Source of the DNA: Actinomycetes bacterium
GTDB lineage: Bacteria > Actinomycetota > Thermoleophilia > BMS3ABIN01
Direction of reading: 5' to 3'
Assembly (NCBI GenBank): GCA_021785935.1
Contig: JAJYOG010000008.1
Span: 999-64,998 of the forward strand
DNA: 64,000 bases
The notes below the pieces were generated by a model. It saw nothing but the letters and a program-made list of their open reading frames with translations. It ran no database searches and had not been told where the DNA came from. Position 1 is the stretch's first letter. Each line of letters opens with the position of its first letter. Position numbers and translations under genes: made by a program. This document shows positions 24,745 to 64,000 of the stretch, one piece after another.

Positions 24745-24760
24745 TGGCACGGTTATTGCT
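24745..24760 (+). promoter_or_regulatory. Sigma54 (-24/-12) promoter, cassette 1
   Basis: TGGCAC-GGTTA-TTGCT, an exact consensus with correct spacing. It lies 44 nt upstream of the ATG at 24804 and is divergent from the HK/RR operon. Confidence 0.85.
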
Positions 24761-24803
24761 TCTTTGTAATAGCAAAGAGACCACTCCAAGGAGGTTAGAA
24801 AAA

Positions 24804-24986: not shown

Positions 24987-24994
24987 TCCCGATC

Positions 24995-25468: not shown

Positions 25469-25489
25469 ACAATAAAGGAGGAGAACCCT

Positions 25490-25732: not shown

Positions 25733-25770
25733 CAAGCAATGCTGATCCCAATTCAACTCTAACAAAGGAG

Positions 25771-27111: not shown

Positions 27112-27113
27112 AT

Positions 27114-27962
27114 ATGGGTGGCTACAGCAAAATACTAGTGGCGTTTGACGGTTCTGACTCAGCAATAAATGCCCTGAAGCAGACTTTCAGCAAATTCGAG
27201 CAAAGCTGGATCAAAGTCCTAATAGCCGTCCCGGCTTATGAGGGCGACCTCGAGCTTGTCGGGGTGCACGATCTGGAGGCCTTGCTGCGCGGCCCTGTCG
27301 ACGATCTGACGAAAATGACCCAGGAAATCGTCGGTTCAGACTCCAGCCGTGTCAGCATTGAAGCCGTGCAAGGTGAAGCCTTTGAGCGGATCGTCGACAT
27401 GGCTGAAAAAGAGAGTTGCAATCTGATTGTCATGGGGCGCCGGGGACTGCACCGGGTAGAACGAATGCTCATGGGCAGCGTCACGGCCAAGGTAATCGTC
27501 CATACAACCAGGGACATCCTGGTCGTGCCCCGCAACGCCAATATCGACTGGGGTAATATCCTCCTGGCGATAGATGGATCTGAATTCAGCAATGCGGCGC
27601 TGGACAGGGCACTGGAATTTGCCGGCAAAGCAAGTGGCGGCCTCACCGCCATTTCCGTCGTCGACATGTATCCCGAGAACTACGCCGACGCCACCGAGGT
27701 CGTTGAAAAAATGGGTAAGAAAGCGCTGGCGGTTCTGGATGACAGCCGGGCAAAGGCTGAGGCCGCGGGCGTGGAGCTACAGACGCAGGTCCTGCACGGC
27801 GACCCGGCGGAAGAGATCACAGCCTATGCCAAGAAAAACGGCGCCGGGGTTGTCTTCCTGGGCAGCCGTGGTCTTTCCGGGCTGAAGAAGATATTCCTGG
27901 GAAGCGTTGCGGAGAAAGTTATCGGCCTTTCCGATTCACCCGTTTATGTAGTGAAACCATAG
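27114..27962 (+). CDS. Tandem-domain universal stress protein
   Basis: Two UspA domains: KILVAFDGSDSA...VMGRRGLHRVERMLMGSVTAKV, and ILLAIDGSEFS...LGSRGLSGLKKIFLGSVAEKV. Confidence 0.88.
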   Translation: MGGYSKILVAFDGSDSAINALKQTFSKFEQSWIKVLIAVPAYEGDLELVGVHDLEALLRGPVDDLTKMTQEIVGSDSSRVSIEAVQGEAFERIVDMAEKESCNLIVMGRRGLHRVERMLMGSVTAKVIVHTTRDILVVPRNANIDWGNILLAIDGSEFSNAALDRALEFAGKASGGLTAISVVDMYPENYADATEVVEKMGKKALAVLDDSRAKAEAAGVELQTQVLHGDPAEEITAYAKKNGAGVVFLGSRGLSGLKKIFLGSVAEKVIGLSDSPVYVVKP

Positions 27963-27976
27963 GCTGGTATTTTCCG

Positions 27977-28001
27977 GCAGGGGGCCTTTGCAAGGCCCCC
28001 T
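27977..28001 (+). terminator. Stem-loop terminator candidate (no strong T-tract)
   Basis: CAGGGGGCC-tttgcaa-GGCCCCCTG, 15 nt after the USP stop. Confidence 0.5.
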
Positions 28002-28067
28002 GCTTCCTCCGGCGGTTGATCGGCTAAAGAGCCCCGCGCCCTCCCCCGCCTGATATAATCGAAAAGT

Positions 28068-29642: not shown

Positions 29643-29646
29643 GACG

Positions 29647-30978
29647 ATGGCGTTCAGGGTACTCGTAGCTGAAGACGAGGATATCACAAGAAAGCATATT
29701 ATCAATGCTCTCCGGGACGACAAATACGAGACTGAGGGAGCGGCTAACGGCGCCGACGCCTTCGAGCGGATCGAAGCGGATGCGTTCGACCTGCTTATCG
29801 CCGACATCAAGATGCCCAAGATGAACGGCCTGGAGCTGCTCTCAAGGGTCAAGGCTACGTCGCCAGAGACAGAGGTCATCGTCATCACCGGCTTCGGCAG
29901 CATCAGCTCCGCCGTGGACGCGATCAAAAACGGCGCCGACGATTACCTGCCCAAACCCTTCGATCTGGACGAACTCATCCTCAAGGTCAACCGGCTGCGC
30001 GACCGCAAGGCGCTCAAAAAAGAGAACGTGGCGCTGAAGACTTACCTGGGCATGGAGGAGGACATCTCCGTGGTCGCCGTCAGCACCAGCATGAAAAAGG
30101 TGCTGGATATCATCCGCCGCATACAGGACTCGGACGCCACGATCCTTCTGACCGGCGAAAGCGGCGTCGGCAAGAATCTTCTGGCCAAGGTCATCCATTT
30201 TTCCAGCTCGCGCCGCGGGCAACCGTTTCTTTCCCTCAACTGCGCGACGTTCACCGAGGACCTGCTCGCTAGTGAACTCTTCGGTCACGAAAAGGGAGCT
30301 TTCACCAGCGCCGTCTCGCAAAAACAGGGGCTGATGCAGATAGCAGACGGCGGCACCCTCTATCTGGACGAGATCGCAGAGCTGTCGCCAAGCCTGCAGG
30401 CCAAGCTGCTCAAGGTCATCGAGGATCAGGAGTTCTACCGCGTCGGCGGCACCAAGCCCATCCGGGTGGATGTCAGGTTCCTGGCGGCGACAAATCAAAA
30501 TCTGGAAAAGGCGATCGCCGCGGGCAGCTTCCGCAAGGATCTCTACTACCGGCTTAACGTGATGGAGATAAACATACCGCCGCTGCGCGAACGCAAGAAA
30601 GACATCGAGCCTTTGGGCAGGTTCTTCCTGGCCAAGCACATGCCGGAGTACAGGAAGCGGATCCGGGGGTTCACCAATGAGTCGCTGCAAATCCTTCGAA
30701 ACTATAGCTACCCCGGCAACGTCCGCGAGCTGGAGAATATCATCGAACGCGCTGTCATCCTCGAAAAGAGCCCCTACATCACCCCCGAATCACTGCCTCA
30801 TTCCTTGAAACTGTTTCAAATCGAAACCATGGAACCGGACAAGATCAAACCACTGGATGAAATCGACCGCGACTACGCCAAATATGTGGTCGAAATGCTT
30901 GGCGGCAACAAGACGGAAGCCGCTCACCTCCTGGGTATCTCGCGCACCAGCCTCTGGCGGATGCTCAAAGAGGAGTAG
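29647..30978 (+). CDS. Sigma54-dependent response regulator, cassette 2
   Basis: The start is set at MAFRVLVAEDE (ATG 29647, just after the kinase stop). Contains GESGVGKNLLA, GAFTSA, ENIIERA and a C-terminal HTH. Confidence 0.92.
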   Translation: MAFRVLVAEDEDITRKHIINALRDDKYETEGAANGADAFERIEADAFDLLIADIKMPKMNGLELLSRVKATSPETEVIVITGFGSISSAVDAIKNGADDYLPKPFDLDELILKVNRLRDRKALKKENVALKTYLGMEEDISVVAVSTSMKKVLDIIRRIQDSDATILLTGESGVGKNLLAKVIHFSSSRRGQPFLSLNCATFTEDLLASELFGHEKGAFTSAVSQKQGLMQIADGGTLYLDEIAELSPSLQAKLLKVIEDQEFYRVGGTKPIRVDVRFLAATNQNLEKAIAAGSFRKDLYYRLNVMEINIPPLRERKKDIEPLGRFFLAKHMPEYRKRIRGFTNESLQILRNYSYPGNVRELENIIERAVILEKSPYITPESLPHSLKLFQIETMEPDKIKPLDEIDRDYAKYVVEMLGGNKTEAAHLLGISRTSLWRMLKEE

Positions 30979-31075
30979 TGTTCATCGTTCACTAGCGTTC
31001 AAATTTGAGACGCCTGATTTAGCTTCGTATTAAATTCAACCTCGTTTTACCACATTTTGCAGGTCATTTTCTAAT

Positions 31076-37937: not shown

Positions 37938-38912
37938 TTATTTCCAGATTCCCGTACCCTTAAGCAGGGCACGCACACCGGCGAATACAAGCATGGTCAA
38001 TACCACGGCCCGTACGGCCGATGGTTTGGACTTTGCGAGGATCTTAACTCCTACCAGCGAACCCATCATGATACCGATAATTGAAGGCACCACGATCATG
38101 GGGATAACCGCGCCGGCGTTCAGATACATCCAGGCTGCCGAGGTATCTGTTGTGGCCAGCAGGAACTTGCTGGTGGCCACCGAGACCTTCAGCGGCGCGC
38201 CCATGACCAGATTCAGCACCGGAACGTTAGCCCAGCCGGCGCCGAGCCCGAACATGCCGGCCATGAAGCCGATGCCGACGAAAAGGATCAGGCCATGGAT
38301 GGTGCGGTGAATCTTCCAGTCGATGTCTTTACCGGATGAGGGCTCGTGATAAACGCCGTTGATCCTGAGCGCCGAGGACAGGGCGTCTGCCTTTCCGACC
38401 TCGGGGTATTCCGACTTCTTGGCCAGAAACATGATGACCACAATAGCGAGAATGGCTATGCCCATGGCCGTGTTGATAATGGCGTCCGATAAAGCGAGAC
38501 CCACCATGGCGCCCATTACAGCAGTGGTTGAGGCGATCAGGGCAACTGGCATCGCCAGACGTAAATCAGCAAGTCCCTTCTTAAGCAGGCCCGGACCGGC
38601 AGCCAGCGATCCCGCCAGGGCTACAAACAATCCGGCGCCCCTGACAAAGTCCATGCCGAAGGGGAAGAAACCGCCGATTATCGGCGTATACAGAACGGCG
38701 CCACCCACGCCTCCGAGGACCGCAAGAATTCCCATGAAAAAAGTGACGACCAGCAGAATCAGCGGCCAGCCCCACCAGGGTATGGCGGAGTCGGCGCCGC
38801 CTGGATTGGCCGGCGAGGCATCACCGGTCCATGCCTGGACCATTCCCGCCGCGAAAATCGCCATCAGAATAAACAGGGCGATAATAAAAAAAAGCGTACA
38901 TCTCTTGGACAT
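37938..38912 (-). CDS. TauE/SafE (DUF81) family anion permease, third copy
   Basis: Contains GILAVLGGVGGAVLYTPII and GMFGLGAGWANVPVLNLV. Confidence 0.8.
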   Translation of the reverse strand: MSKRCTLFFIIALFILMAIFAAGMVQAWTGDASPANPGGADSAIPWWGWPLILLVVTFFMGILAVLGGVGGAVLYTPIIGGFFPFGMDFVRGAGLFVALAGSLAAGPGLLKKGLADLRLAMPVALIASTTAVMGAMVGLALSDAIINTAMGIAILAIVVIMFLAKKSEYPEVGKADALSSALRINGVYHEPSSGKDIDWKIHRTIHGLILFVGIGFMAGMFGLGAGWANVPVLNLVMGAPLKVSVATSKFLLATTDTSAAWMYLNAGAVIPMIVVPSIIGIMMGSLVGVKILAKSKPSAVRAVVLTMLVFAGVRALLKGTGIWK

Positions 38913-50404: not shown

Positions 50405-50773
50405 TTGACACCTGATTATACATATGGCTACTTGTCTGTGGCTGTCATGAGCCTTCTGGACTTTGTCTTTGTCCTGGGGCTTCTTGGTGTTTCCCGCCTC
50501 CTGCAACGCCGTCACGTCTACCCGGAAAAATTGACCCCGTATGAGTGCGGCATTCCACCGGTCGGTGACAGCCGCACCCCCTTCGCCGTCAAGTACTATA
50601 TTTTTGCCCTCCTCTTCGTCGTCTTTGATATTGAGGCTGTTTTTCTGTATCCCTGGGCGATGGTCTTCCGGACTCTGGGTTCAACCGGTTTCGTGGAGAT
50701 GATGATCTTCTTCGCCGTCCTGCTTCTGGGGCTTGTCTATGCCTGGGGCAAGGGCGCCCTGGAGTGGGTCTGA
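50405..50773 (+). CDS. nuoA: NADH-quinone oxidoreductase subunit A
   Basis: Contains YECG....G......F...YY..A..F..FD.E..FL.PW. Confidence 0.9.
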
Positions 50774-50774
50774 C

Positions 50775-51326
50775 ATGTCCGTTCTGGAAAAATTCGAGCA
50801 TCCGAACATCCTCACCACGACCACGGACTGGCTTTTTAACTGGGCGCGGTCTAATTCGCTCTGGCCCTTCACCTACGGCCTGGCCTGTTGCGCCATCGAG
50901 ATGATGGCTTCTGGCATGCCCCGCCACGATATCGCCCGTTTCGGCATGGAGGTCTTCCGGGCCTCTCCCCGGCAGGCCGACGTCATGATAGTTTCCGGAA
51001 CCATCACCGACAAGATGGCGCCTATCATCAGGCATCTCTATCACCAGATGTCGGAACCCCGCTGGGTGGTGGCCATGGGAGCCTGCGCCTGCAGCGGCGG
51101 CATGTTCTGGGATTCCTACAATGTGGTCCAGGGGATCGACCTGCTGGTGCCGGCCGACGTCTACATCCCCGGTTGCCCGCCGCGGCCCGAAGCGCTGATA
51201 TATGGCATGCAGCAGCTTCAAAAGAAGGTCCGCCAGGACACGCAGGTCGGCAAAGCCAAACAGCTCGCCGGTGGTCCCTTAAGTGATTATTCCAGGATGA
51301 AACCGGAAAATGGCGGTAAGAGTTGA
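50775..51326 (+). CDS. nuoB: NADH-quinone oxidoreductase subunit B
   Basis: The start is set at MSVLEKFEH. Contains GLACCAIEM....D..RFG...R.SPRQAD...V.GT, CACSGG and GCPPRPE. Confidence 0.92.
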
Positions 51327-51867
51327 CCGCGGATATGGGGAAGCTTGATGCCACGGTCGCGCTTGCTCTTGCCGGGGAGCTTCTCGGCAAGCTCGCTCGC
51401 GACCTTTCCATTTCCGACTGGCACCTGGTAATCGAGGTCAGGCCTGACGACTTGCCGGAAGCCGCCCTGCGGTTGCGTGACGATGAAAAGCTGTCCTGCA
51501 AATATCTCAGCTGTATCATTGGGGTCGACTACGTCGACTGGATGGAAGCGCTCTACCTGTTGCGATCACAGGACCATTCGGTGCCGATCCGGCTGCGGGT
51601 GCGTCTCGACCGCGAAAAGCCCGAGGTGCCCTCGGTAACATATATATGGAGCGGCGCCAACTGGCATGAGCGCGAAGCGTACGACTTTTTCGGCATCAAG
51701 TTTTTGGGGCATCCCGACCTCAGGCGCATTCTCACGCGCGAGGATTATGACACCCACCCGCTAAAAAAAGACGCCTGGCCCCACCGCGTGCGCCGCACCG
51801 AGTGGGCCTGGGAAGGCGTGGGGAAAGCGCTTCGCCTCCCGGGTGAGCCGGACCGCCAGGAGAGATC

Positions 51868-51871
<4 letters not shown>
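51323..51871 (+). CDS. nuoC: NADH-quinone oxidoreductase subunit C
   Basis: Contains [31 protein letters not shown]. Confidence 0.88.
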
Positions 51872-53000
<1,129 letters not shown>

Positions 53001-53004
<4 letters not shown>

Positions 53005-54140
53005 GCAGCGTCACCGATTTTCTCGTCAACTTCCTGCCGGGCTTCGTCCTCGCCCTAATGGTGATCATCTTGAGCGCGGTTATCTTCCCCTTCGCCGCGA
53101 GGCGTATTCTGGGCTTTATGGGCGACAGGCTCGGCCCCAACCGCGTCGGGCCGCAGGGGCTCCTGCAACCATTCGCCGACTTTCTCAAACTTTTTATCAA
53201 GGAGGACGTCACCCCCTCCCAGGCCCACCGGATGCTGTTTCTGTTGGCTCCAGCCGTGGCGCTCGTAACCCCGATGCTGACACAGGTGGTCATCCCCTTT
53301 GGTGAAGATTACACTATCGCCGACCTGAACATCGGCCTTATATATATAGTGGCGGTCGGCGCCTTCAGTGTCCTGGGAATGCTGATCGCGGGCTGGGCCT
53401 CCAACAATAAATATTCGCTGGTCGGCGGTCTGAGGTCGGCGGCGCAGATGATCTCCTATGAGATACCGCTGATCCTGACAATCGTGCTGGTGGCGATACT
53501 GACCGGCTCCCTCAGCCTCAACAAGGTCGTAATCGCCCAGGATTCGGTGTGGTTCGCGGCCATACAGCCGCTGGCTTTTATCATTTATGTCATCGCCGGT
53601 GTGGCGGAACTCAACCGCACGCCTTTCGATCTGCCGGAAGCGGAATCGGAGCTGGTCAGCGGCTACATCACCGAGTACGGCGGCATGCGTTTTGCCTTCC
53701 TGTACGGCCTGGTTGAGTGGGGCAATGTGACCGTCTGGGCTATGGCCGGATCCACCCTGTTCCTCGGCGGCTGGCGCGGACCGTTTTTCAACAGCTCCAT
53801 CTGGCTGGCGGTCAAGGTCCTGGCTATGGTCCTGGTGATCATCTGGTTCTGGGCAACCTTCCCCCGCCTGCAGATCGACCAGCTGATGGCCTTTGCCTGG
53901 AAGGTGCTCATCCCCTTAAGCCTGCTGAACCTGGCGGCGACGAGCGCGTTTATTTTAATCTGGCCTGACAATTTCCTGCTGCCGACGGCTATCCTGAGCT
54001 GGGCTCTGATAGCCCTCTTTATCCTGTTCTTCCCGCGCATTGTCCGGAGGATCCTGCTTAATACCCGGCTGAAACTGCTGGCAACCAGGAGGATGACGAC
54101 GGTTATCTCCGGAACCGGTAAAGGCGGTATCCGCTCATGA
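53001..54140 (+). CDS. nuoH: NADH-quinone oxidoreductase subunit H
   Basis: Contains R.GPNRVGP.GLLQP.AD..KL..KE, and NR.PFDL.EAESELV.G...EY. Confidence 0.92.
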
Positions 54141-54181
54141 TGTGGCCGGCTGTAATTGCCAGAAGGAAGCAGGGCGCCTAG

Positions 54182-55996
54182 ATGCTGGGCCTCCTAAAAG
54201 GACTGCAGGCGACACTCGGCCACCTTCTCACCAAGAAGGTCACGGTCCAGTACCCGGAAGTCCGCCGTCAGTTGCCGGAACGCTCGCGTGGGCTGCTAAG
54301 GTTGCGCCTGAAAGAAGACGCTGTCGAACCGCGCTGCATCTCCTGTACCTTTTGCGAGCAGGTCTGCCCCTCGGTGGCAATTAAAGTCATCTATGGCAAC
54401 AAGCAGCCGGACAAGGTCTGGAGCCTCGACGCCGGCGCCGGACCCATGCTCTCGTATTTTAATCGCGGCGAAAAACCGCTTGGCCTCGAGCCATGGCCCG
54501 AGAAGGCCGACGCCTTGCCCGCTCCCGACCGCGACGGCTGCCTGGCCAGCTCGTTGCTGGATGCGCGTGGGCTGACACCTATGGTCCTGGCCAAGACAGC
54601 CAGCCGCAACGGAGTCTGGCTGTCGCAGGCATTTGGCGTGGCGACTTTCTATGACCAGCTGCGGCCTGGGGCGCCAGAGGCTCCTCCCGAAGCAGATCTG
54701 CCGGCTGCGTCAACTGTCGTCGGGAGCCCTGCAATTTTTCTGGCAAACCACGACGCCCTGGATCCGGAGGATATTGAAGCCTATGCGGCGGCCGGCGGTT
54801 ACACAGCCGCGACCCGCGCCCTTACTGAGATGAGCCCCACTGAGATTATTGATGAGATTGCCGCCAGCTCCCTGCGTGGACGCGGCGGCGGTGGTTACTC
54901 TACCGGCGATAAGTGGAAATTGGCCGGCGACACTGAAGCGCGGCAGAAATATGTAGTCTGCAACGCCGCCGAGTCTGACCCGGGATCAATCAAAGACCGC
55001 TCCCTGCTCGAAAACAATCCCCACGGTATTATTGAAGGCATGATTGTTGCCGGCTACGCCGTCGGCGCCACCAAAGGGATCATTTACGCAAGTATTCACA
55101 ACCGGCTTGCTCTGGAACGAATCCAGATCGCGGTGGATCAGGCCGCGGAGAAAGGATTTCTCAACGGCGAGATCCCCGGTACGAATTTTTCTTTTTCCAT
55201 CTCGGTGCTGGCCGTGCCGGAAGCATTCATAGGTGGCGAGGAAACGTCCGCCCTGAGCGCCCTTTCCGGCGGCAGGCCGATGCCCCGGGTGCGCCCGCCC
55301 TATCCGGCCGAAAAAGGGCTGCGTGGCATGCCTACCATCGTTGAGAATGTGGAAACGCTGGCGGCGGTTCCGTGGATCATCGCTAACGGCGCGGGCGCCT
55401 GGAATCAGATTGGAGCCCCACACGCTCCGGGCACCAGACTTTTTACATTGACCGGCGCCGTAGCCAATCCGGGCATTTACGAAGCCACCCTGGATATCAC
55501 CCTGAAGAAGCTGGTCGACGCGGCCGGCGGTTTCACGGGAGAAGCCAAGGCGGCGTTGGCGGGTTCAGCCGGAGGCGGCTTCCTCTCTCCCGGCCTCTTT
55601 GATATTCCGCTTGATTATGAATCCATCGCCGAAACCGGCGGTGACATCAGCTCCGGTGTCATCCACGTACTGGGCAGTGACGAGTGCGTCGTTAATGTCA
55701 TGCGCGAGCGCCTGCGTTTCTCCGCTTCCCAGTCCTGCGGCAAGTGCGTACCCTGCCGGCTCGGCACCTGGCGCCTGCTCGACATCGTCGACAGAATCTG
55801 CGCCGGCGAGGGATCCGAAGACGATCTGACGCTGGCGACTACCCTGGCTGAGGATATCGCCGACGGGGCTCTTTGCGGCCTGGGGCGCGGTTCGGTCAAG
55901 CCGTTTTTGACCGGTCTTAAATTTTTCAATCAGGAATTCCTGGACCATTTGAGCGGCGACAAGAGCTGCTCCGCGAATAAATGCGTGACCGGATGA
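54182..55996 (+). CDS. Fusion: NuoI N-terminal half (one 4Fe-4S motif) + Cys-less NuoE remnant + complete NuoF-like NADH/FMN/N3 module
   Basis: Residues 1-70 (LLKGLQATLGHLLTKKVTVQYPE...RCISCTFCEQVCPSVAI) match NuoI/Nqo9. VATFYDQL is a NuoE-like remnant. NuoF features are GRGGGGYSTGDKW, VVCNAAESDPGSIKDR, SCGKCVPCRLG and ALCGLG. Confidence 0.8.
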   Translation: MLGLLKGLQATLGHLLTKKVTVQYPEVRRQLPERSRGLLRLRLKEDAVEPRCISCTFCEQVCPSVAIKVIYGNKQPDKVWSLDAGAGPMLSYFNRGEKPLGLEPWPEKADALPAPDRDGCLASSLLDARGLTPMVLAKTASRNGVWLSQAFGVATFYDQLRPGAPEAPPEADLPAASTVVGSPAIFLANHDALDPEDIEAYAAAGGYTAATRALTEMSPTEIIDEIAASSLRGRGGGGYSTGDKWKLAGDTEARQKYVVCNAAESDPGSIKDRSLLENNPHGIIEGMIVAGYAVGATKGIIYASIHNRLALERIQIAVDQAAEKGFLNGEIPGTNFSFSISVLAVPEAFIGGEETSALSALSGGRPMPRVRPPYPAEKGLRGMPTIVENVETLAAVPWIIANGAGAWNQIGAPHAPGTRLFTLTGAVANPGIYEATLDITLKKLVDAAGGFTGEAKAALAGSAGGGFLSPGLFDIPLDYESIAETGGDISSGVIHVLGSDECVVNVMRERLRFSASQSCGKCVPCRLGTWRLLDIVDRICAGEGSEDDLTLATTLAEDIADGALCGLGRGSVKPFLTGLKFFNQEFLDHLSGDKSCSANKCVTG

Positions 55997-58350
55997 AAGA
56001 AAGAATGGATACATTACCGCCGCTTAGAGGCGCCAGGGGTTCCCTGGTCAATCTCACCATCAACGGCCAGCAGGTCCAGGCCCGTGAAGGTGACACCATC
56101 CTCGAAACAGCGAAATCGGTCAAGATCAAGATTCCGTACCTGTGCATAGTCAAGGGGCTTGAGCCCCACGGCGGCTGCCGGCTCTGCATCGTTGAGGTCG
56201 AAGGCGAGGACCGGCCGGTTCCTTCCTGCGCTACTTACGTCAAGGAAGGCATGAACGTCACAACCGAATCGGAGCAGCTGACCCGGCTGCGCAAGACCTA
56301 CCTCGAGCTGCTGCTTTCTGACCACAATGCCTATTGCCTGCCTCCCTGCAAGTATGGTTGCCCCACCCAGGTGGACGCGCCTGGCTTTCTCGGCCTGATT
56401 ACCGAGGGCGATTACGATGAGGCGCAACGGGTGCTGAAGCATAATCTGCCATTTCCCGCGGTTGTGGGGCGCATCTGCCCCCACCCCTGTGAATCACAAT
56501 GCCGGCGCAGTGAAGTTGAGGAGCCAATCTCCATTCGCGTTTCCCACCGTTTCGTGGGTGACATCGCCATTGAAAAAGGCTTCCGTCCCGAAGAACCGGA
56601 GCCGGCCAGCGGCAAGAAGGTGGCCGTCATCGGCGCCGGGCCGGCCGGCTTGGCCAACGCCTATTATCTGGCGCTCAAGGGGCACGCGGTCACCATATTT
56701 GAAGCGCTGCCGCATCCCGGCGGCATGTTGCGCTACGGCATACCTGAATACCGGCTGCCCAAGCGCGTGCTCGACGCCGAGCTGGAACCGCTCTGGGACA
56801 TGGGCGTAGAGCTGAAGACAAACCAGAAGCTCGGTCCTGATTTCAGCCTGAACAGCCTGCTTGATGAGCAGGGATTCGACGCCGTCTACCTGGGAATCGG
56901 CGCCCACCAGAGCATGGACATGCGGGTCGAGGGCGAGAATACCCCAGGAGTAATTACCGTCGTCGATTTCCTGCGCGAAGTGGCCCTGGGCAATCCTCCT
57001 GACATCCATGAGAAGGTCGCGGTCATCGGCGGCGGTTTCTCGGCCATGGACGCGGCCAGGGTGTCGGTGCGCCAGGGAGCCAAAGAGGTAACCGTTATCT
57101 ATCGCCGCACCGAGAAGGAGATGCCCGCCCACGAGATCGAGGTGCGCGACGCCCGCGAGGAGGGCGTGAACTTTGTCTTCCTGGCGGCTCCGGTGAAGGT
57201 CGAGGAGGAGAACGGCCGCGTCAAGGGCATCGTCCTGCAGAAGATGGAGCTGGGAGAGCCGGACGCCAGCGGGCGCCGTCGCCCGGAACCCGTGGCCGGG
57301 TCCGAATACCTGATGGAACTCGACACAATTATCCCCGCCATCGGTCAAAGGCCAAAGCTGACTTATACGGAAAGCGAGGGCGGCGAAGAATGCAACTTCG
57401 TGGAAGACGGCACCGGGGTCACCTGCAGCCGCTGGCAGACCGTTGAAGTAAATCCCAAGACTTTTCAGACCGGGAAGCCGGAAGTTTTCTCCGGTGGCGA
57501 TGCTGTTACCGGCGCCGCCACGGTGGTACAGGCCATCGGCGCCGGCAAGAAGGCTGCCTGGGCAATGGATGCCTTCCTGCGGGGAGAAGATCTGGCGGCA
57601 TATGAAGCCGGCCTTCCTGAAATGGAGAAACCGCCAATGATCGCCATCCCCGCATGGCGCCCTGAAAAACTTGAGCGCCAACAGACCGGAAACGTCGCCG
57701 CCGCCGAGCGCAAGGACAATTTCCGCGAGGTCGAGCAAGGCTTCCCGGAACAGGCGGCCAAAGCCGAGGCCAACCGATGCCTGCAATGCATCTGTGAAGG
57801 CGTCGAGAGTTGCAAACTCAGGCGCTACAGCATCAATCACGGGCTGATGAAAGAGGATGGCAACCGCTTCCAGGGCGAACAGCATATTTACGGGAGAGAC
57901 ACCACGCACCCCTTCGTGCAGAGGGATCCCAACCGCTGCATCGATTGCGCCCGCTGCGTGCGGGTCTGCAAATATATAACCGGCTCCGGCGTCTACGAGC
58001 TTGCCAACCGCGGCGCCGATACCATCGCCACGCCGGCGTTCGACCGCTCACTCAATGAAACTGACTGTGTTTCCTGCGGCCGCTGCGCCAACATCTGCCC
58101 CACGGGCGCTCTTTTCCTGCGCGAGCGGGAGCTGACCGACTGGCATCTGGACACCTCGCGCTGCATCTTTTGCGCCGATTGCGTCGAGGTCTGCCCGCAG
58201 GAAGCGCTGGCGACGACGCCGGCGTTCGAGCTGGCGTCCTTCGAGCACTCGGACCTGCGCTGCCACTTGCTGGAGCGCGCCAGGGGAGCCGACCTAAACC
58301 CGGGCGGCTGGGGCGAGAAAGACCGTCCCAAGAAGGGAGGCGACAGCTGA
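55993..58350 (+). CDS. Fusion: 2Fe-2S (NuoG N-term-like) + GltD-like NAD(P)H/FAD oxidoreductase + 8-Cys ferredoxin + NuoI C-terminal half
   Basis: ATGA coupling to the previous ORF. Contains CIVKG...GGCRLCIVEV...PSC, GKKVAVIGAGPAGL, RCIDCARCVRVC plus CVSCGRCANICPTGAL, then an orphan RCIFCADCVEVCPQEALATTPAFELASFEHSDL, which is the NuoI C-terminal signature. Confidence 0.8.
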   Translation: MKERMDTLPPLRGARGSLVNLTINGQQVQAREGDTILETAKSVKIKIPYLCIVKGLEPHGGCRLCIVEVEGEDRPVPSCATYVKEGMNVTTESEQLTRLRKTYLELLLSDHNAYCLPPCKYGCPTQVDAPGFLGLITEGDYDEAQRVLKHNLPFPAVVGRICPHPCESQCRRSEVEEPISIRVSHRFVGDIAIEKGFRPEEPEPASGKKVAVIGAGPAGLANAYYLALKGHAVTIFEALPHPGGMLRYGIPEYRLPKRVLDAELEPLWDMGVELKTNQKLGPDFSLNSLLDEQGFDAVYLGIGAHQSMDMRVEGENTPGVITVVDFLREVALGNPPDIHEKVAVIGGGFSAMDAARVSVRQGAKEVTVIYRRTEKEMPAHEIEVRDAREEGVNFVFLAAPVKVEEENGRVKGIVLQKMELGEPDASGRRRPEPVAGSEYLMELDTIIPAIGQRPKLTYTESEGGEECNFVEDGTGVTCSRWQTVEVNPKTFQTGKPEVFSGGDAVTGAATVVQAIGAGKKAAWAMDAFLRGEDLAAYEAGLPEMEKPPMIAIPAWRPEKLERQQTGNVAAAERKDNFREVEQGFPEQAAKAEANRCLQCICEGVESCKLRRYSINHGLMKEDGNRFQGEQHIYGRDTTHPFVQRDPNRCIDCARCVRVCKYITGSGVYELANRGADTIATPAFDRSLNETDCVSCGRCANICPTGALFLRERELTDWHLDTSRCIFCADCVEVCPQEALATTPAFELASFEHSDLRCHLLERARGADLNPGGWGEKDRPKKGGDS

Positions 58351-58847
58351 TGGGTGATTTCAACCAGTTCTTTTTCATCCTGCTATCCGTCGTCATCCTG
58401 GTTTCTGCCGCCTGCGTGGTCCTGTTCAAGAACCTGATCTACAGCGCCCTGTCGATGATCGGCAGTTTTCTCGGCGTGGCGGGCATCTATATCCTGCTGC
58501 ACGCCGAGCTGGTTGCCGCCGCACAGGTGCTCATCTATGTCGGCGCTATTTCAGTGCTGGTAATTTTCGCCATCATGCTCACTCATCACCGCACCGGCGA
58601 TCTGAGTCTTTACTTCCATAAACAGGCCTGGATCGCCCTGCCTGTATGTGCCGTAGCCGGAATTACCCTGATGGTCATCATGGGCTCCGCCGCCTACAAC
58701 GCCGTCGGCGAGGCCCAAAACCCGACCGACGAAAATATCGCTTCACTGCTGTTTAACGAATACGCTTTCCCCTTCGAGCTGGTATCGCTGGCTCTGCTGG
58801 TCGCCATGATCGGCGCTGTCATCCTCGCCAAGAAGGAGAAAAGCTGA
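58350..58847 (+). CDS. nuoJ: NADH-quinone oxidoreductase subunit J
   Basis: The start is set at MGDFNQFFF (ATG overlaps the upstream TGA). Contains [39 protein letters not shown]. Confidence 0.88.
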
Positions 58848-59155
58848 TGACGCCGCTGCAGGAATATCTGGCTCTTTCAATGGCGCTCTTTTTCATCGGC
58901 ACCTGGGGCGTGGTGGCGCGCCGCAATATTATTCTGGTGGTAATGTGCATCGAACTGATGCTCAACGCCATCAACATCGCTCTGGTGGCATTTTCAAATT
59001 ATTCCCCGATCGGCGGCGGCCGCGGCGAGGTCTTTGTTTTCTTCGTCTTTGCCCTGGCGGCGGCGGAAGCAGCCATCGGCCTGGCGATAGCGATTGCCAT
59101 GTACAGGCTCAAAGAGAAACTTTCGGTTGACGACCTTGACGAGATGAAGGGATAG
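58847..59155 (+). CDS. nuoK: NADH-quinone oxidoreductase subunit K
   Basis: Contains N.I..LM.IELMLNA.N...V.F, and [11 protein letters not shown]. Confidence 0.92.
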
Positions 59156-59167
59156 ATGGGTAGTTAA

Positions 59168-61054
59168 ATGATGAAGACTGCCGTCCTGCTCATACCACTG
59201 CTGCCGCTGGCCTCATTTATTATCACGGGGCTGTTCGGCAAACGGTATTTCAAAGAGAAGAGCCAATATCTTTCCGTGGCGGCGGTCGCGGTTTCCTGGC
59301 TGCTTTCCATCTATCTGATCATCCAGGTCGAGCGCGGCGAGGAGTTGAGCTGGCAGGTCTATTCCTGGATCGCGGCGGGCAAATTCAAAGTCGACATCGG
59401 CTTCCTGGTGGACCAGCTGACAGCGGTTATGCTGCTGGTGGTTTCCACCGTCGGTTTCATGGTGCATGTCTATTCGATCGGCTACATGAAGGGCGACGGC
59501 GGCTACTACCGCTTCTTCGCCTACCTCAACCTGTTCATGTTCTCGATGTTCATGCTCATCCTGGGCAATAACTTCCTCATGCTCTATGTCTTCTGGGAAG
59601 CTGTGGGACTTTGCTCCTATCTGCTCATATCATTCTGGTATACCAAACAAAGCGCCGCCAACGCCGGCACCAAGGCCTTCCTGGTCAACCGCGTCGGCGA
59701 CTTCGGTTTCGGCCTGGGGATCATGCTCATTTTCGTCACCCTGGGAACGCTGAGCTACAGCGGCGTTTTTGAAAACGCCGGACGCATCGGCTCCGGCACC
59801 ATCACCGCCATCTGTCTGCTGCTGTTCATGGGCGCCATGGGCAAGAGCGCCCAGTTCCCGCTGCATGTCTGGCTGCCGGACGCCATGGAGGGCCCGACAC
59901 CGGTCAGCTCGCTGATCCACGCCGCCACTATGGTCAATGCCGGTGTCTATATGGTGGCGCGCTCCAGCCCCCTGTTCCATCAGTCACATACCGCCATGTT
60001 CGTAGTAGCGTTGGTGGGAACCTTTACCGCGATCTTCGCCGCTTCGATCGGCCTGGTTCAGAACGACATCAAGAAGGTGCTGGCGTATTCCACTGTCAGC
60101 CAGCTGGGCTACATGTTTGCTGCTCTCGGCGTCGGCGCCTGGGCCGCGGGTATGTTCCACCTGGTCGCCCATGGTTTCTTCAAGGGGCTTTTATTCCTCT
60201 GTTCCGGCTCGGTAATTCACGCCGTTTCGGGAGAGCAGGACATGCGCAAGATGGGCGGGTTGAAGAACAAGATCAAGATTACCTACTGGACCTTTGTTAT
60301 CGGAGCGCTGGCGATCTCAGGCTTTCCGGGACTCGCCGGTTTCTGGAGCAAGGACAGCGTTCTCGCCGGAGCTTTTAACGGCGGTTACTGGTACTTCTGG
60401 CTGGTTGGCCTGATCGCGGCCTTCATGACCGCCTTTTACATGTTCAGGCTGATCTTCATGACCTTCCACGGCAAGCCCCGTGACGTAGAACTGTACTCAC
60501 ACGCGCATGAGTCGCCGCGGAGCATGACCATACCGCTGATCGTTCTGGCGATTCCATCGGTTTTGATCGGCCTGGTGCTGGGACTGCCGCCGGAGGACGG
60601 CCATATCGACCGTTTCCTGGAGCCGGTTTTTGAAGCCGTCAAGGGCGAGGCTCATCATTTCGGCGCTCTCGACGTGGGGCTGATGGCGCTGTCGGCGGGG
60701 ATCGGCCTGGCCGGCATCTTCCTGGCCTGGGTTTTCTATATCAAGCGTCCCGAACTTCCAGAGAAGGCCGGAGCCCATGTCGGTGTTCTCTATAAAGCAG
60801 CGCTCAACAAATACTGGATCGATGAGATTTACTTCGCACTCTTCATTAACCCGGTCCGCGCCTTGGGCCGCGGGCTCTGGCGGTGGGTGGACGTTGGTAT
60901 TATTGATGGCTTTGTCAACGGCTCCGCCAGGTTCTTCCGCGGCGTGGGCATGGTGCTGAGGCCGGCACAGTCGGGCAAGATCCAGGCTTATATGTTCAGT
61001 ATGCTGCTGGGCCTCCTGGCTCTCCTGCTCGTTTATCTGGCGTTAACGATCTGA
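59168..61054 (+). CDS. nuoL: NADH-quinone oxidoreductase subunit L
   Basis: Contains FWE.VGLCSYLLI.FW, KSAQFPLH.WLPDAMEGPTPVS.LIHAATMV.AGV, and a long C-terminal lateral helix region. Confidence 0.92.
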   Translation: MMKTAVLLIPLLPLASFIITGLFGKRYFKEKSQYLSVAAVAVSWLLSIYLIIQVERGEELSWQVYSWIAAGKFKVDIGFLVDQLTAVMLLVVSTVGFMVHVYSIGYMKGDGGYYRFFAYLNLFMFSMFMLILGNNFLMLYVFWEAVGLCSYLLISFWYTKQSAANAGTKAFLVNRVGDFGFGLGIMLIFVTLGTLSYSGVFENAGRIGSGTITAICLLLFMGAMGKSAQFPLHVWLPDAMEGPTPVSSLIHAATMVNAGVYMVARSSPLFHQSHTAMFVVALVGTFTAIFAASIGLVQNDIKKVLAYSTVSQLGYMFAALGVGAWAAGMFHLVAHGFFKGLLFLCSGSVIHAVSGEQDMRKMGGLKNKIKITYWTFVIGALAISGFPGLAGFWSKDSVLAGAFNGGYWYFWLVGLIAAFMTAFYMFRLIFMTFHGKPRDVELYSHAHESPRSMTIPLIVLAIPSVLIGLVLGLPPEDGHIDRFLEPVFEAVKGEAHHFGALDVGLMALSAGIGLAGIFLAWVFYIKRPELPEKAGAHVGVLYKAALNKYWIDEIYFALFINPVRALGRGLWRWVDVGIIDGFVNGSARFFRGVGMVLRPAQSGKIQAYMFSMLLGLLALLLVYLALTI

Positions 61055-61058
61055 GGCT

Positions 61059-62621
61059 ATGTACGAATTTCAGGAACAGATAGGATTTCCCATACTGACG
61101 GTGATTACTTTCCTGCCGGCGCTTGGCGGCCTGGCGGTTCTGTTTGCCCGTGGCAAACCCAATGTCTACAAGGGCATAACCCTGGCGGTTACGGGCGTGA
61201 ACTTCCTGCTCTCGCTCGTGTTGATTCAGTATTTCGACCGCTATACCGCGACCATGCAGTTCGTGGAAAAGGTGCCGTGGATCAGCAGCCTCGGCATCAG
61301 TTACCACATGGCGGTCGATGGCATCAGCGTGCTGCTGATCATGCTGACTACGCTCTTGTCGCTGATCATCGTTCCGGCATCCTGGAATTACATCAAGGAC
61401 CGCGAGCTGCAGTTCTTTGCCGCCTTCCTCTTCCTGGAAACGGGGCTCATCGGCGTCTTTTGCGCCCGCGACCTTTTCATGTTCTATGTCTTCTGGGAAG
61501 TCATGCTCATCCCCATGTATTTCATCATCGGAGTCTGGGGCGGGCCGCGCCGTATCTACGCCGCCATAAAATTCTTCCTGTTTACTTTTGCCGGCAGCCT
61601 GCTGATGCTGATCGCCATCGTCGCCATCGCCTATCTGGCGCGCTCCAATCCTTTCGCGACACCGGTATTCGACATGGACCTCCTCGAAAATGCCACCTTC
61701 TCCTACCAGGTGCAGGTGCTCGCCTTCCTGGCGTTCTTCATTGCCTTTGCGGTGAAGGTGCCGATGTGGCCGTTGCATACCTGGCTTCCGGATGCTCATG
61801 TCGAGGCGCCCACCGCCGGTAGCGTCATCCTGGCGGGCGTAATGCTGAAAGTCGGCGGTTACGGAATGCTGCGCCTCTGCATCCCGCTCTTCCCCGATGC
61901 CGTGGTCGCCATCGCCCCCTATATCCTGGTGCTGTCGATCATTGCCATCGTCTACGGCGCCCTGGTGTCGCTGGTACAAAAAGATTTGAAGAAGCTGGTT
62001 GCCTACTCCAGCGTCAGTCACATGGGTTTTGTCACGGCCGGTATTTTCGCTCTAAACATAGTGGGCATCGAGGGCGGGATCATGGTCATGTTCAGTCACG
62101 GCCTCCTGACGGGCGCCCTTTTCCTCATGGTGGGTTTCCTTTATGAGCGGCTGCATACCCGTGAGATCTCTGAAATGGGCGGGTTGGCCGGACCGTTCCC
62201 GGTGATGGCGGCATTCTTCTCGTTTTTCGCGCTGGCGTCGCTGGGACTGCCTGGACTCTCGGGATTTGTCGGGGAATTCCTCAGCCTGGTCGGGCTGTTC
62301 ACCTACAGCAAGCCGATGGCGGCTGTCGCATCGATCGGCATTATCCTGGCGGCTGCCTATCTCCTTTGGATGTACCAGCGGGTGATGTTCACCGGGCTCC
62401 GCGATCAAAAGTGGTACAAGGTTCCTGATTATTCATTGCGGGAGATCGTTTCGCTGGCGCCTCTGGGGATCCTGGCGGTTTGGGCCGGGGTCTATCCCAA
62501 TACATTCCTGCAGCTGATCCAGCCGCCGGCCGCCAGGCTGACGGAAAAGATGGCGCCTTACATGGCCGAGAGCGGCAGCGTCGTCGAACGCATATTCGCA
62601 TCGTTGGGAGGACTCTTCTAG
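61059..62621 (+). CDS. nuoM: NADH-quinone oxidoreductase subunit M
   Basis: Contains FWE.MLIPMYF.IG.WGG, K.PMWP.HTWLPDAH.EAPTAGSV.LAG..LK.GGYG. Confidence 0.92.
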   Translation: MYEFQEQIGFPILTVITFLPALGGLAVLFARGKPNVYKGITLAVTGVNFLLSLVLIQYFDRYTATMQFVEKVPWISSLGISYHMAVDGISVLLIMLTTLLSLIIVPASWNYIKDRELQFFAAFLFLETGLIGVFCARDLFMFYVFWEVMLIPMYFIIGVWGGPRRIYAAIKFFLFTFAGSLLMLIAIVAIAYLARSNPFATPVFDMDLLENATFSYQVQVLAFLAFFIAFAVKVPMWPLHTWLPDAHVEAPTAGSVILAGVMLKVGGYGMLRLCIPLFPDAVVAIAPYILVLSIIAIVYGALVSLVQKDLKKLVAYSSVSHMGFVTAGIFALNIVGIEGGIMVMFSHGLLTGALFLMVGFLYERLHTREISEMGGLAGPFPVMAAFFSFFALASLGLPGLSGFVGEFLSLVGLFTYSKPMAAVASIGIILAAAYLLWMYQRVMFTGLRDQKWYKVPDYSLREIVSLAPLGILAVWAGVYPNTFLQLIQPPAARLTEKMAPYMAESGSVVERIFASLGGLF

Positions 62622-64000
62622 ATGAAACAGGACCTTCTCGCCATCATGCCAGAAATAATGTTGATCGCAACCGCGGTCGTGATTCTGCTGGTCGACCCCT
62701 TGCTGCCAGTCGACGGCCGCCGTGGACTCAGCTGGCTGGGCATCGCCGCCAGCGTCACAGCCGCGATCGCCACCTGGCAACTTAGGGATGAGGAATATTC
62801 CGTCTTCAGCCACAGCATCGCCGTCGACAAGTATTCCATTTTCTTCAAAATACTGTTGCTGGTTGTGGCGGCGCTGGCGATGCTGCTCTCCGAGAAATAT
62901 CTCTTTCTGAAGAAGCGGCTCCTGGGCGACTATTACGCCCTGATTCTTTTCGCGACGATCGGGATGATGGTGATGGCCGAGGCTGTCGATCTGATCACGT
63001 TCTTCGTCGGGCTCGAGCTGATGGCGCTCTGCTCCTACCTGCTGGCTGGTTTCTTCCGTTATCAGGAAAGGTCGGTCGAGGCGGGCATGAAATATTTCCT
63101 TACCGGGGCGTTTGCTTCAAACTTCCTTCTGTTCGGCATGGCGATCCTTTACGGACTGGCCGGATCCACCAATTATCAGGAGATCGGCGATGCCATCCGG
63201 CTCGGCCCGGTGCCGTCCGGGCCGCTGGTCATCGCCATCGTGCTGGTGTTGGCAGGCTTTGCCTTCAAAGTCGGCGCGGCGCCGTTCCACAATTGGGCGC
63301 CGGATGTATATCAGGGCGCGCCGACGCCGGCGGCTGCGTTTCTTGCGGTCGGCCCCAAAATTGCTGCCTTCGCCGCCATTTTAAAGTTCTTTACGATCAT
63401 GCTGGGAAGCCAGGAATCGACGTGGGTTCCCTTGATGATCGCGGTTGCGATTTTGACCATGATCGTGGGCGCCACTATGGCGCTGCTGCAGAAAGACCTC
63501 AAGCGGATGCTGGCTTTCTCGAGTATCGGCCACGTTGGTTACCTGCTGCTGGCGGTCATCGCCACCGGCAGTAGCGGGCGCAGCATCGGCATGTCGTCAG
63601 TCCTTTTCTATCTGGCTGCATATACCTTTATGAACATGGGCGCCTTCGGCGTTCTCGTTCACATGACTAATCATTCGAGCTTTGGCGACACCCTGGATGA
63701 TATCGCCGGGGCCGGTAAAAGCTTCCCGTGGGCGGCGGGCATCATGTCCCTGTTCATGCTTTCGCTAACCGGCGTGCCGCCGACCGCAGGTTTCCTTGCC
63801 AAGTTTTATCTGTTCTCGGCGGTTGTGGATGCCGGTTATGCCTGGCTTGCCGTTGTCGGAGCCCTCTTTAGCCTTGTCTCCGCCTTCTTCTATCTGCGCG
63901 TGATTGTCTATATGTACATGCGTTCACCGGAGCAAGAGCTGGAAATGTCGGAGGATGGCAAATCTTGGGATCTCGGTCTGGGATTGGGAATAGCCGCAAC
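62622..64000 (+). CDS. nuoN: NADH-quinone oxidoreductase subunit N (3' end beyond window)
   Basis: The frame is open from ATG 62622 to the window edge. Reads MKQDLLAIMPEIMLIATAVVILLVD...GLELMALCSYLL...FKVGAAPFHNWAPDVYQGAPTP...SSIGHVGY. It is not in the ORF track because no stop lies in the window. Confidence 0.88.
   Translation, partial: MKQDLLAIMPEIMLIATAVVILLVDPLLPVDGRRGLSWLGIAASVTAAIATWQLRDEEYSVFSHSIAVDKYSIFFKILLLVVAALAMLLSEKYLFLKKRLLGDYYALILFATIGMMVMAEAVDLITFFVGLELMALCSYLLAGFFRYQERSVEAGMKYFLTGAFASNFLLFGMAILYGLAGSTNYQEIGDAIRLGPVPSGPLVIAIVLVLAGFAFKVGAAPFHNWAPDVYQGAPTPAAAFLAVGPKIAAFAAILKFFTIMLGSQESTWVPLMIAVAILTMIVGATMALLQKDLKRMLAFSSIGHVGYLLLAVIATGSSGRSIGMSSVLFYLAAYTFMNMGAFGVLVHMTNHSSFGDTLDDIAGAGKSFPWAAGIMSLFMLSLTGVPPTAGFLAKFYLFSAVVDAGYAWLAVVGALFSLVSAFFYLRVIVYMYMRSPEQELEMSEDGKSWDLGLGLGIAA

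Follow-up and report, generated by a model that had tools for sequence, protein, structure and literature searches.

The window analysed here, a stretch of 64,000 nucleotides from contig JAJYOG010000008.1 of a Thermoleophilia bacterium (assembly GCA_021785935.1, positions 999 to 64,998), carries on its plus strand an operon for respiratory complex I. By the usual view, complex I admits electrons from NADH specifically and has a core that is highly conserved. To our knowledge, its subunit NuoI is a single small protein in every solved structure. In the operon of the window NuoI is found as two halves, one at the N-terminus of a first large open reading frame (ORF1) and one at the C-terminus of a second (ORF2). 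Between the two halves lie a NuoF-type flavoprotein and domains which resemble the bifurcating transhydrogenases NfnABC and StnABC. In this study, we describe the two proteins, the tiling of the NuoI halves and their conservation, and we propose an origin and a function for the arrangement.

Two large proteins between nuoH and nuoJ

From 50405 to 64000 the plus strand is occupied by one tightly packed operon with the order nuoA-B-C-D-H-[ORF1]-[ORF2]-nuoJ-K-L-M-N (Table 1). A sequence-only reading of this DNA had proposed the same order, and the NCBIfam profiles by which the flanking nuo genes were identified agree with it, exact coordinates included. All seven membrane-arm subunits (NuoA, H, J, K, L, M and N) were matched, nuoN being incomplete at the window end. 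The Q-module was matched as well: NuoB with the cysteine motifs of cluster N2, including GCPPRPE, NuoC, and NuoD with the His and Tyr residues of a quinone site (HPSTHG and RLDY). Since NuoD has these quinone-type motifs and is without NiFe cysteine pairs, the complex is predicted to be of the quinone-reducing complex I type and not a membrane hydrogenase; a hydrogenase-type complex (Mbh/Ech) was ruled out on these grounds.

ORF1 (54182-55996) encodes 604 amino acids (aa) and ORF2 (55993-58350) 785 aa. A GAAGGAAG box precedes the ATG of ORF1. The two frames overlap in an ATGA (55993-55996), as had been noted from the letters alone, and the stop codon of ORF2 overlaps the nuoJ start in a TGATG (58348-58352). 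These junctions indicate translational coupling, the start of ORF2 being slightly ambiguous (ATG at 55981, 55993 or 56005). Concerning the remaining N-module genes, no separate nuoE, nuoF, nuoG or nuoI was found within the 64-kb window, and for these 64 kb the earlier claim of their absence stands. A single NuoI protein (about 15-20 kDa, two CxxCxxCxxxCP motifs) is likewise absent from the 64 kb, where this motif occurs in just three ORFs, and NuoI sequence is present only as the halves in ORF1 and ORF2. Scans of the window for tRNAs and Rfam families gave no match bearing on the nuo operon.

ORF1 begins with the N-terminal half of NuoI (I_N), as the sequence-only reading had recognised. Residues 3-74 match positions 1-66 of the 121 positions of the NuoI profile (NF004538, E 2e-15; TIGR01971, E 6e-14), and the first 78 residues alone align with the N-terminal part of NDUFS8/Nqo9/NuoI through the first motif (about 50 bits, E 1e-13). 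The only CxxCxxCxxxCP motif of ORF1 is CISCTFCEQVCP. It had further been claimed that ORF1, exactly where NuoI should supply its second motif, runs into a Cys-less remnant of NuoE. The remnant is found but the junction is not exact, about 45 linker residues separating it from the motif. In the family alignment aa 76-190 align with the N-terminal helical part of NuoE in relatives that keep a complete NuoE, and BLASTP matched 28 aa around 'GVATFYDQ' to the genuine NuoE domain of one relative (E 1e-5). AlphaFold2 (AF2) models helices at aa 121-156 with moderate confidence (predicted local distance difference test, pLDDT, 67-76). Searched alone against Pfam, including PF01257, aa 76-190 gave no match, and they contain no cysteines. 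The assignment of this segment, weak when it stands alone, is suggested by its position, the family alignment and the short BLASTP match.

The rest of ORF1 is a NuoF with the sites for flavin mononucleotide (FMN) and NADH and for cluster N3 that had been predicted for it: aa 192-589 match TIGR01959 with 372 bits, and the three domains expected of NuoF are present (Table 1). By sequence and by fold this part is closest to NfnB/StnB. It scores 398 bits against Caldicellulosiruptor (Csac) NfnB (aa 105-523 of 584) and 386 bits against StnB; T. sibiricus NfnB likewise scores above the NuoF of complex I, for which 295 bits (M. smegmatis) and 287 bits (Thermus) were obtained. The model of ORF1 superposes best on NfnB/StnB (Foldseek template modelling score 0.68, root-mean-square deviation 1.5-1.7). 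ORF1 is without the thioredoxin-like N-terminal domain (B2), without the C-terminal 2x[4Fe-4S] domain (B3/B4), no Fer4 match following NADH_4Fe-4S, and without the [2Fe-2S] cluster of NuoE (C1/N1a).

ORF2 had been read as a [2Fe-2S] domain, a GltD-type NAD(P)H/flavin adenine dinucleotide (FAD) domain, an eight-cysteine ferredoxin and an orphan final motif, and Pfam profiles and a motif scan give the same series (Table 1). The GltD domain scores 308 bits against the large subunit of P. furiosus NfnI and is modelled by AF2 at pLDDT >90, the NuoF core of ORF1 being likewise well modelled. Three CxxCxxCxxxC motifs lie at aa 649, 692 and 724 (motifs 1 to 3). Motifs 1 and 2 belong to a 2x[4Fe-4S] domain with 73 bits against NfnA 602-682, which is also similar to StnC and HydA; the last motif, RCIFCADCVEVCP, is followed by TPAFELASFEHSDL. 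From aa 18 to 718 ORF2 is collinear with Csac NfnA aa 3-682 (9bov_A; 645 bits, E 1.6e-192), and it is also collinear with Sporomusa StnC aa 3-675 (8oh5_C; 609 bits). Together with the scores of ORF1 against NfnB and StnB, this agrees with the Stn/Nfn-type likeness that had been suspected for the NuoF and GltD parts.

The alignment with NfnA stops at its residue 682, and ORF2 goes on with 67 NuoI-like residues. According to PMC10482914, the inactive FdhF-like domain of StnC begins at residue 683, and its clusters C1 and C2 are reported to stand outside electron transfer. Because the homology ends where the FdhF-like domain starts, ORF2 can be described as an NfnA/StnC from which the Fdh-like domain has been removed at its boundary, with the 67 residues substituted. 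A conserved segment, YRR(T/S)xxEMPA, is common to ORF2 and NfnA, and this likeness points to a putative NADPH site in ORF2. As regards the N-module of complex I, ORF1 and ORF2 provide the NuoF core and the N-terminal Fe-S part of NuoG (Fer2_4, Fer4_Nqo3); the NuoE cluster domain and the C-terminal domain of NuoG are absent from them.

Table 1. Features of the complex I operon, in window coordinates
Feature	Coordinates	Strand	Evidence and remarks
nuoA	50405..50773	+	NF005839 NuoA, E 6e-35
nuoB	50733..51326	+	NF005012 NuoB, 251 bits, above cutoff; start codon uncertain
nuoC	51323..51871	+	TIGR01961 NuoC_fam, 114 bits
nuoD	51868..53004	+	TIGR01962, 461 bits, and NF004739, 455 bits, both above cutoff
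nuoH	53001..54140	+	NF004741 NuoH, 332 bits, above cutoff
ORF1 aa 1-75, NuoI N-terminal half (I_N)	54182..54406	+	Membrane-side N-terminus, LPERSRGL, first motif CISCTFCEQVCP
ORF1 aa 76-190, linker and putative Cys-less remnant of NuoE N-terminal helical domain	54407..54751	+	GVATFYDQ; family alignment, BLASTP, AF2
ORF1 aa 191-604, NuoF/NfnB-type flavoprotein, FMN/NADH site and N3 (B1) [4Fe-4S]	54752..55996	+	Complex1_51K, SLBB, NADH_4Fe-4S domains
ORF2 aa 18-93, NuoG/HydA-type [2Fe-2S] domain (= N1b/A1)	56044..56271	+	Fer2_4, E 3e-19; C51, C62, C65, C79 invariant
ORF2 aa 115-530, GltD/NfnL-type domain, two [4Fe-4S], FAD, NADPH-type site	56335..57582	+	Fer4_20 and Pyr_redox_2 (aa 115-518); IYRRTEKEMPA
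ORF2 aa 596-707, four-Cys motif (C596, C599, C601, C607) and HydA/NuoG/NfnA-type 2x[4Fe-4S]	57778..58113	+	CIDCARCVRVC ... CVSCGRCANICP; Fer4_Nqo3 aa 640-707; all Cys invariant
ORF2 aa 715-760, NuoI C-terminal half (I_C)	58135..58272	+	DWHLDTSRCIFCADCVEVCPQEALATTPAFELASFEHSDL; C724, C727, C730, C734 invariant; joint alignment with I_N
nuoJ	58350..58847	+	NF005168 NuoJ, E 4e-38; start overlaps ORF2 stop
nuoK	58847..59155	+	NF004320 NuoK, above cutoff
nuoL	59168..61054	+	NF005141 NuoL, 793 bits
nuoM	61059..62621	+	TIGR01972, 610 bits
nuoN	62622..64000	+	TIGR01770, 416 bits; cut by window end

Tiling and conservation of the NuoI halves

The two halves cover NuoI as one domain. A chimera of ORF1 aa 1-78 and ORF2 aa 708-769 aligns with Arabidopsis NDUFS8 23-141 with three gap columns (78.5 bits, E 3e-21), and also with Thermus Nqo9 6-129, E. 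coli NuoI 23-130 and M. smegmatis NuoI 5-130. The end of ORF2 alone aligns with the C-terminal part of NuoI. The proposal that both termini are NuoI-like and tile the protein is thereby upheld, for the N-terminal one by the profile match of aa 3-74 and for the C-terminal one by the joint alignment.

In a 2x[4Fe-4S] ferredoxin fold, three of the four ligands of a cluster belong to one motif and the remaining one to the other motif. Because motifs 1 and 2 of ORF2 match the 2x[4Fe-4S] domain of HydA/NfnA, motif 3 is left for the motif of ORF1. Most simply, ORF2 motif 1 would therefore pair with motif 2, and the ORF1 motif with ORF2 motif 3, and from this we infer that N6a and N6b are reassembled across two polypeptides. 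In a different arrangement there would be no reassembly: ORF2 would build a closed NuoI-like two-cluster domain on NuoB/D from its own motifs 2 and 3, and the N-terminus of ORF1 would be a mere membrane or NuoH anchor with one cluster or none. ORF2 aa 685-756, a stretch with two motifs, can be aligned with the NuoI profile as well as with E. coli NuoI, the 19 residues between motifs 2 and 3 are a spacing typical of small ferredoxins, and ORF2 has solitary paralogues without an I_N neighbour. However, re-pairing would orphan motif 1, whose four cysteines are invariant, and would give no explanation for the likewise invariant motif of ORF1. Solved structures of NfnA, StnC and HydA contain an interleaved 2x[4Fe-4S] domain to which motifs 1 and 2 correspond collinearly. 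Moreover, neither the four cysteines nor the proline of the I_N motif vary across the two phyla, no segment of ORF1 is more constrained than I_N, and the chimera reproduces the whole of NuoI, NuoI-specific flanks included, nearly without gaps. We regard such an arrangement as quite improbable and prefer pairing across ORF1 and ORF2.

The architecture is not a peculiarity of this stretch, as it might have seemed from the window alone, and the search for the same synteny found it in two phyla with invariant cluster cysteines. The full ORF1 architecture is found in about 53 database clusters with identities of 57-78%, whose labels are Thermoleophilia or Gaiellales metagenome-assembled genomes (MAGs), some on contigs up to 514 kb. 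Scanning one genome per species and mapping loci by tblastn, we found 51 loci with both NuoI halves in Thermoleophilia/Actinomycetota and Chloroflexota. The full operon, A-B-C-D-H-[I_N::NuoE]-[NuoF]-[NfnA'::I_C]-J-K-L-M-N, is present at 11 Thermoleophilia/Actinomycetes loci. In the commoner Thermoleophilia form (L001, L008-L011, L034, L052 and L062) the I_N protein has a complete four-cysteine NuoE (PF01257, 153 bits in L001) and NuoF has a thioredoxin-like N-terminal domain, while the I_N::E'::F fusion was found only in the close relatives of the window, L004, L005, L007 and L060. The B3/B4 domain is absent from every relative examined. The ancestral form consists of three genes, I_N::NuoE, NuoF and NfnA'::I_C, of which the clade of the window then fused the first two, with loss of the [2Fe-2S] domain of NuoE. 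The L001-type form looks like a less reduced intermediate between NfnABC and the fused form. When 1.84 billion cluster representatives were searched exhaustively with ORF1 aa 1-200, a handful more one-motif I_N::NuoE clusters came up amid ordinary two-motif NuoI. Relatives are named in databases as 'NuoF', 'SLBB domain protein', 'FAD-dependent oxidoreductase' or 'formate dehydrogenase major subunit', and in none were the NuoI halves recognised.

In Chloroflexota the module is placed after nuoB or nuoB-nuoD, both in Limnocylindria MAGs (L012, L019, L035 and others) and in Ktedonobacteria (L021, L032, L037, L049). Cultured carriers are Ktedonobacter robiniae, Dictyobacter vulcani, D. aurantiacus and Thermogemmatispora aurantia. 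A complete Ktedonobacterales MAG, CP126532, also carries the module, as does JAGVMV01, a MAG from Thermoleophilia. NuoD of the Chloroflexota carriers is of the quinone type too. Their clusters are short, nuoB-[I_N::E']-F-[NfnA'::I_C] or nuoB-nuoD-..., with unrelated neighbours such as icd or a GH1 glycosidase. Copies of the ORF2 family occur three in tandem in Dictyobacter aurantiacus and two in D. vulcani (L037 and L032).

All 28 cluster cysteines of ORF2 are invariant across 38 sequences, and its three C-terminal motifs are kept in all sampled relatives down to 47% identity. The four cysteines of I_N and its P.RSRG box are invariant in 18 diverse loci with paired I_N and I_C. Against four relatives, the ratio of nonsynonymous to synonymous substitution (dN/dS) is 0.05-0.10 for I_N and 0.12-0.29 for I_C, rough values since dS is saturated. 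Both NuoI halves are under purifying selection. These data also bear on the view that the locus is a chimeric assembly, or a nuoI destroyed by the insertion of a separately working soluble Nfn-like operon. The contig is of the metagenome type and the NuoE part is visibly degenerate, but the same junctions recur in many samples, at 51 independent loci in all, some of them in finished genomes of cultured Ktedonobacteria, and the reading frames are intact, translationally coupled and, in both NuoI halves, under selection. Without the NuoI halves, moreover, no N6a/N6b route to N2 would be left in the operon. An explanation by artefact or decay is hardly credible; assembly chimera and pseudogene were both rejected on the conservation of, and selection on, the two halves.

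Proposed origin, function and relation to known enzymes

Because the order of the inserted parts matches stnA-B-C and the insert sits precisely between the motif-coding parts of nuoI, we propose that an operon of the nfnC-B-A type, with the order NuoE-like, NuoF-like, GltD/NuoG-like, entered nuoI at a point between the two cluster motifs. The insertion would have created two in-frame fusions, I_N::NuoE and NfnA'::I_C. In the clade of the window, I_N::NuoE would later have lost its [2Fe-2S] domain and been fused to NuoF, giving ORF1.

We consider it likely that the operon encodes a complex I whose nuoI was split by an Nfn-type module that stands in for ordinary NuoEFG, the halves re-forming N6a/N6b, with an FMN/NADH and an FAD/NADPH input and probably without electron bifurcation. 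Judged by homology, the halves would reassemble physically, the cofactor sites would be occupied, NADPH would be used and protons would be pumped. NADH would reduce the FMN of ORF1, and electrons would pass via N3 to the [2Fe-2S] and [4Fe-4S] clusters of ORF2; NADPH would reduce the FAD in the GltD domain of ORF2 and its electrons would enter the same chain via the two [4Fe-4S] clusters of that domain. The NuoI halves of ORF1 and ORF2 would pair to rebuild a 2x[4Fe-4S] ferredoxin domain (N6a/N6b) on NuoB/NuoD/NuoH, which would anchor the module and complete the wire to N2. From N6a electrons would run to N6b, to N2 in NuoB and to quinone, powering the NuoL/M/N pumps. ORF2 would fill the role of NuoG, with its [2Fe-2S] and following [4Fe-4S] clusters, and add the GltD domain with FAD and two clusters. 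The large domain of NuoG contacts NuoI and the Q-module in complex I structures. The lost Fdh-like domain would be the counterpart of this NuoG domain, its docking role having passed to the split ferredoxin domain: one NuoI half is carried by the NuoE-remnant/NuoF protein and its counterpart by the NfnA-like protein, and as N6a/N6b fold, the module would be clamped on NuoB/D/H.

Several observations weigh against this proposal. Single-chain AF2 models are unconfident in the pairing regions (pLDDT about 30 for ORF1 aa 1-115 and <50 for ORF2 aa 617-785), and the NuoI profile also aligns motifs 2 and 3 of ORF2 as a complete core (TIGR01971 positions 37-115, 63.8 bits). Similarity to NfnA (the YRR motif) is the sole pointer to the putative NADPH specificity. 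Membrane-arm genes were not found within 10 kb of several Chloroflexota loci; there the module may either attach to a membrane arm whose genes lie elsewhere or function in soluble form. Solitary ORF2 paralogues with three motifs and with no I_N, NuoF or NuoB nearby occur in some Ktedonobacteria (L066 in K. racemifer, L041 in K. robiniae and L050 in K. rubrisoli; also L074), so that adjacency of ORF2 and I_N is not obligatory. Finally, the scope seen is 64 kb, and an ordinary nuoI or nuoEFG elsewhere in the genome is possible.

By sequence and fold, the closest relatives of the module (NfnABC, StnABC, HydABC) all bifurcate. The operon could accordingly be taken for an electron-bifurcating or confurcating membrane enzyme of the 'Nuo-Bfu' kind, coupling NADPH, NADH and a low-potential partner or quinone by flavin-based bifurcation; in one version, reverse flow from quinol, driven by the proton-motive force, would replace reduced ferredoxin and drive NADP+ reduction. 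Nuo-Bfu and Mbh-Bfu enzymes with BfuABC genes in mid-operon were predicted by Schut et al. (PMC9304861), and the three-gene relatives of the L001 type retain the NuoE [2Fe-2S] cluster and the thioredoxin-like domain on NuoF. In the window, however, the NuoE cluster (C1), the thioredoxin-like domain B2 and the C-terminal ferredoxin domain B3/B4 are all absent, the last of them also from the relatives examined. According to PMC11829005 and PMC10482914, bifurcation requires the B1-FMN-C1 flavobicluster together with the B3/B4 ferredoxin domain, loss of B3/B4 or of the StnA/HydC cluster abolishes it, and complex I-type homologues are without B2-B5; C1 and B2-B5 are named in PMC11829005 as the features that separate bifurcating Bfu enzymes from such homologues. 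Because the proteins of the window are without C1 and B2-B5, we favour a non-bifurcating NAD(P)H:quinone oxidoreductase and regard a bifurcating enzyme as unlikely. The enzyme is most likely a plain NAD(P)H:quinone oxidoreductase, which may be able to equilibrate NADH and NADPH. Bifurcation in the style of the transhydrogenases appears unlikely from the domain content, and simple dual input of NADH and NADPH is the better guess.

Compared with canonical complex I (T. thermophilus 4HEA, E. coli 7AWT, M. smegmatis 8E9G), the operon has the same seven membrane subunits and NuoB, C and D. Also in common are the NuoF-type FMN/N3 part, the NuoG-type N-terminal Fe-S chain, NuoI elements for N6a/N6b and the gene order outside the insert. 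In contrast to the canonical enzyme, NuoI is divided between two large proteins, the genes of the N-module lie after nuoH and before nuoJ, whereas the canonical ones lie between nuoD and nuoH, the NuoE [2Fe-2S] cluster (N1a) and the molybdopterin-like C-terminal domain of NuoG are missing, and a GltD-type FAD/NADPH domain and two more [4Fe-4S] clusters are added. The enzyme would work in the manner of complex I; strictly taken, it would fall outside complex I in its lack of a single-polypeptide NuoI and in its NuoE/NuoG features.

With NfnABC/StnABC (PDB 9BOV, 8OH5, 9N5U; PMC11829005 and PMC10482914), ORF2 is collinear through [2Fe-2S], GltD and 2x[4Fe-4S] (the 645 and 609 bits given above), NfnB/StnB are nearest to the NuoF part of ORF1, and the gene order E-like, F-like, GltD/G-like is held in common. 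The window differs in having neither the thioredoxin-like and C-terminal ferredoxin domains of NfnB nor the [2Fe-2S] domain of NfnC, and in ORF2 the NuoI C-terminal half takes the place of the C-terminal Fdh/NuoG-like domain of BfuA. Whereas NfnABC is a soluble tetramer, the module is embedded here in the operon of a membrane complex. It appears to be built of Nfn/Stn parts and yet to lack the bifurcation features that define the Bfu family.

The same idea underlies the Nuo-Bfu and Mbh-Bfu systems (Schut et al. 2022, PMC9304861), in which a Bfu-type ABC module replaces NuoEFG in the middle of a complex I-like or Mbh-like cluster. Those systems were, however, chosen for a BfuB with the ferredoxin domain and are proposed to bifurcate, and that paper describes neither a GltD/NADPH domain in Nuo-Bfu nor a split NuoI. 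The phyla named there also differ: Nuo-Bfu is placed in Deferribacteres, Proteobacteria, Planctomycetes and Nitrospirae, and Mbh-Bfu in Dehalococcoides. In the Mbx-like operons of Thermotoga and proteobacteria (Degli Esposti 2015, PMC4758237; PRK13984), compared here by their published description, a GltD-related NAD(P)H flavoprotein stands at the position of NuoI and is joined to NuoI-type Fe-S sequence. Positions 20-71 of the PRK13984 profile match I_N in ORF1, and its positions 198-609 match the GltD domain in ORF2. By that description, the Mbx-like subunit is one polypeptide in an Mrp/Mbx-type complex, with no NuoF, no NuoG-type chain and no two-protein NuoI. The sequence-only reading noted the architecture as not known to be described. 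In the full-text literature searched, which does not reach subscription journals, neither a split NuoI nor a complex I with an N-module of the GltD/Nfn type, able to use NADPH, was found described; Nuo-Bfu/Mbh-Bfu and the GltD subunit of Mbx-like operons come nearest. The design is apparently undescribed, and it is conserved in two bacterial phyla.

We further suggest, tentatively and with somewhat more doubt than confidence, that a family of proton-pumping complex I in Thermoleophilia and Chloroflexota captured the operon of a bifurcating transhydrogenase, docks it by a split ferredoxin and oxidises NADPH and NADH at two flavins. If true, respiration could draw on NADPH directly through the second, NADPH-type flavin site, which would also provide a membrane-coupled link between the nucleotide pools; run in reverse, the enzyme could use the proton-motive force to reduce NADP+ or to shift the NADH/NADPH balance. 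The locus would also be a case of module swapping in which an entire soluble-enzyme operon sits inside a subunit gene and a split Fe-S domain serves as docking device. Across the relatives, the NuoE cluster and the thioredoxin-like domain are retained or lost step by step, a natural experiment on what Nfn/Bfu bifurcation needs. The presence of the same module in cultured aerobic Ktedonobacteria makes biochemistry and cryo-electron microscopy feasible.

Other loci in the window

A second NfnA-like gene (7720-11835, minus strand) has the [2Fe-2S], GltD and HydA-like 2x[4Fe-4S] domains fused to a genuine molybdopterin domain of the formate dehydrogenase type. It contains an in-frame TGA at 9340-9342 in the context 'NNVDHCART*HAPTVAGL', which we take to correspond to the selenocysteine site of E. 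coli FdhF. The gene, listed as the two ORFs 9340-11835 and 7720-9327, probably encodes a single selenoprotein of about 1370 aa, which is a candidate for an NADPH-linked formate dehydrogenase. Directly upstream of this gene is a ZMP/ZTP riboswitch (RF01750, 54.6 bits, 11914-12007, minus strand). A molybdenum-cofactor operon follows at 12119-15891 (mobA/B, moaA, moaC, MOSC and a mog-like gene), with a Moco riboswitch upstream of it (RF01055, 67.8 bits, 15882-16016, minus strand), and genes for MoeA-like and FmdE-like proteins are located at 6058-7685.

The region 16219-31000 is dense in two-component sensor kinases and sigma-54-dependent response regulators (16219-17805, 17814-19787, 21689-23059, 23085-24473, 28068-29642 and 29566-30978), and an HD-domain response regulator is encoded at 20192-21175. 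Two exporters of the TauE/SafE type are encoded at 25771-27111 and 37938-38912.

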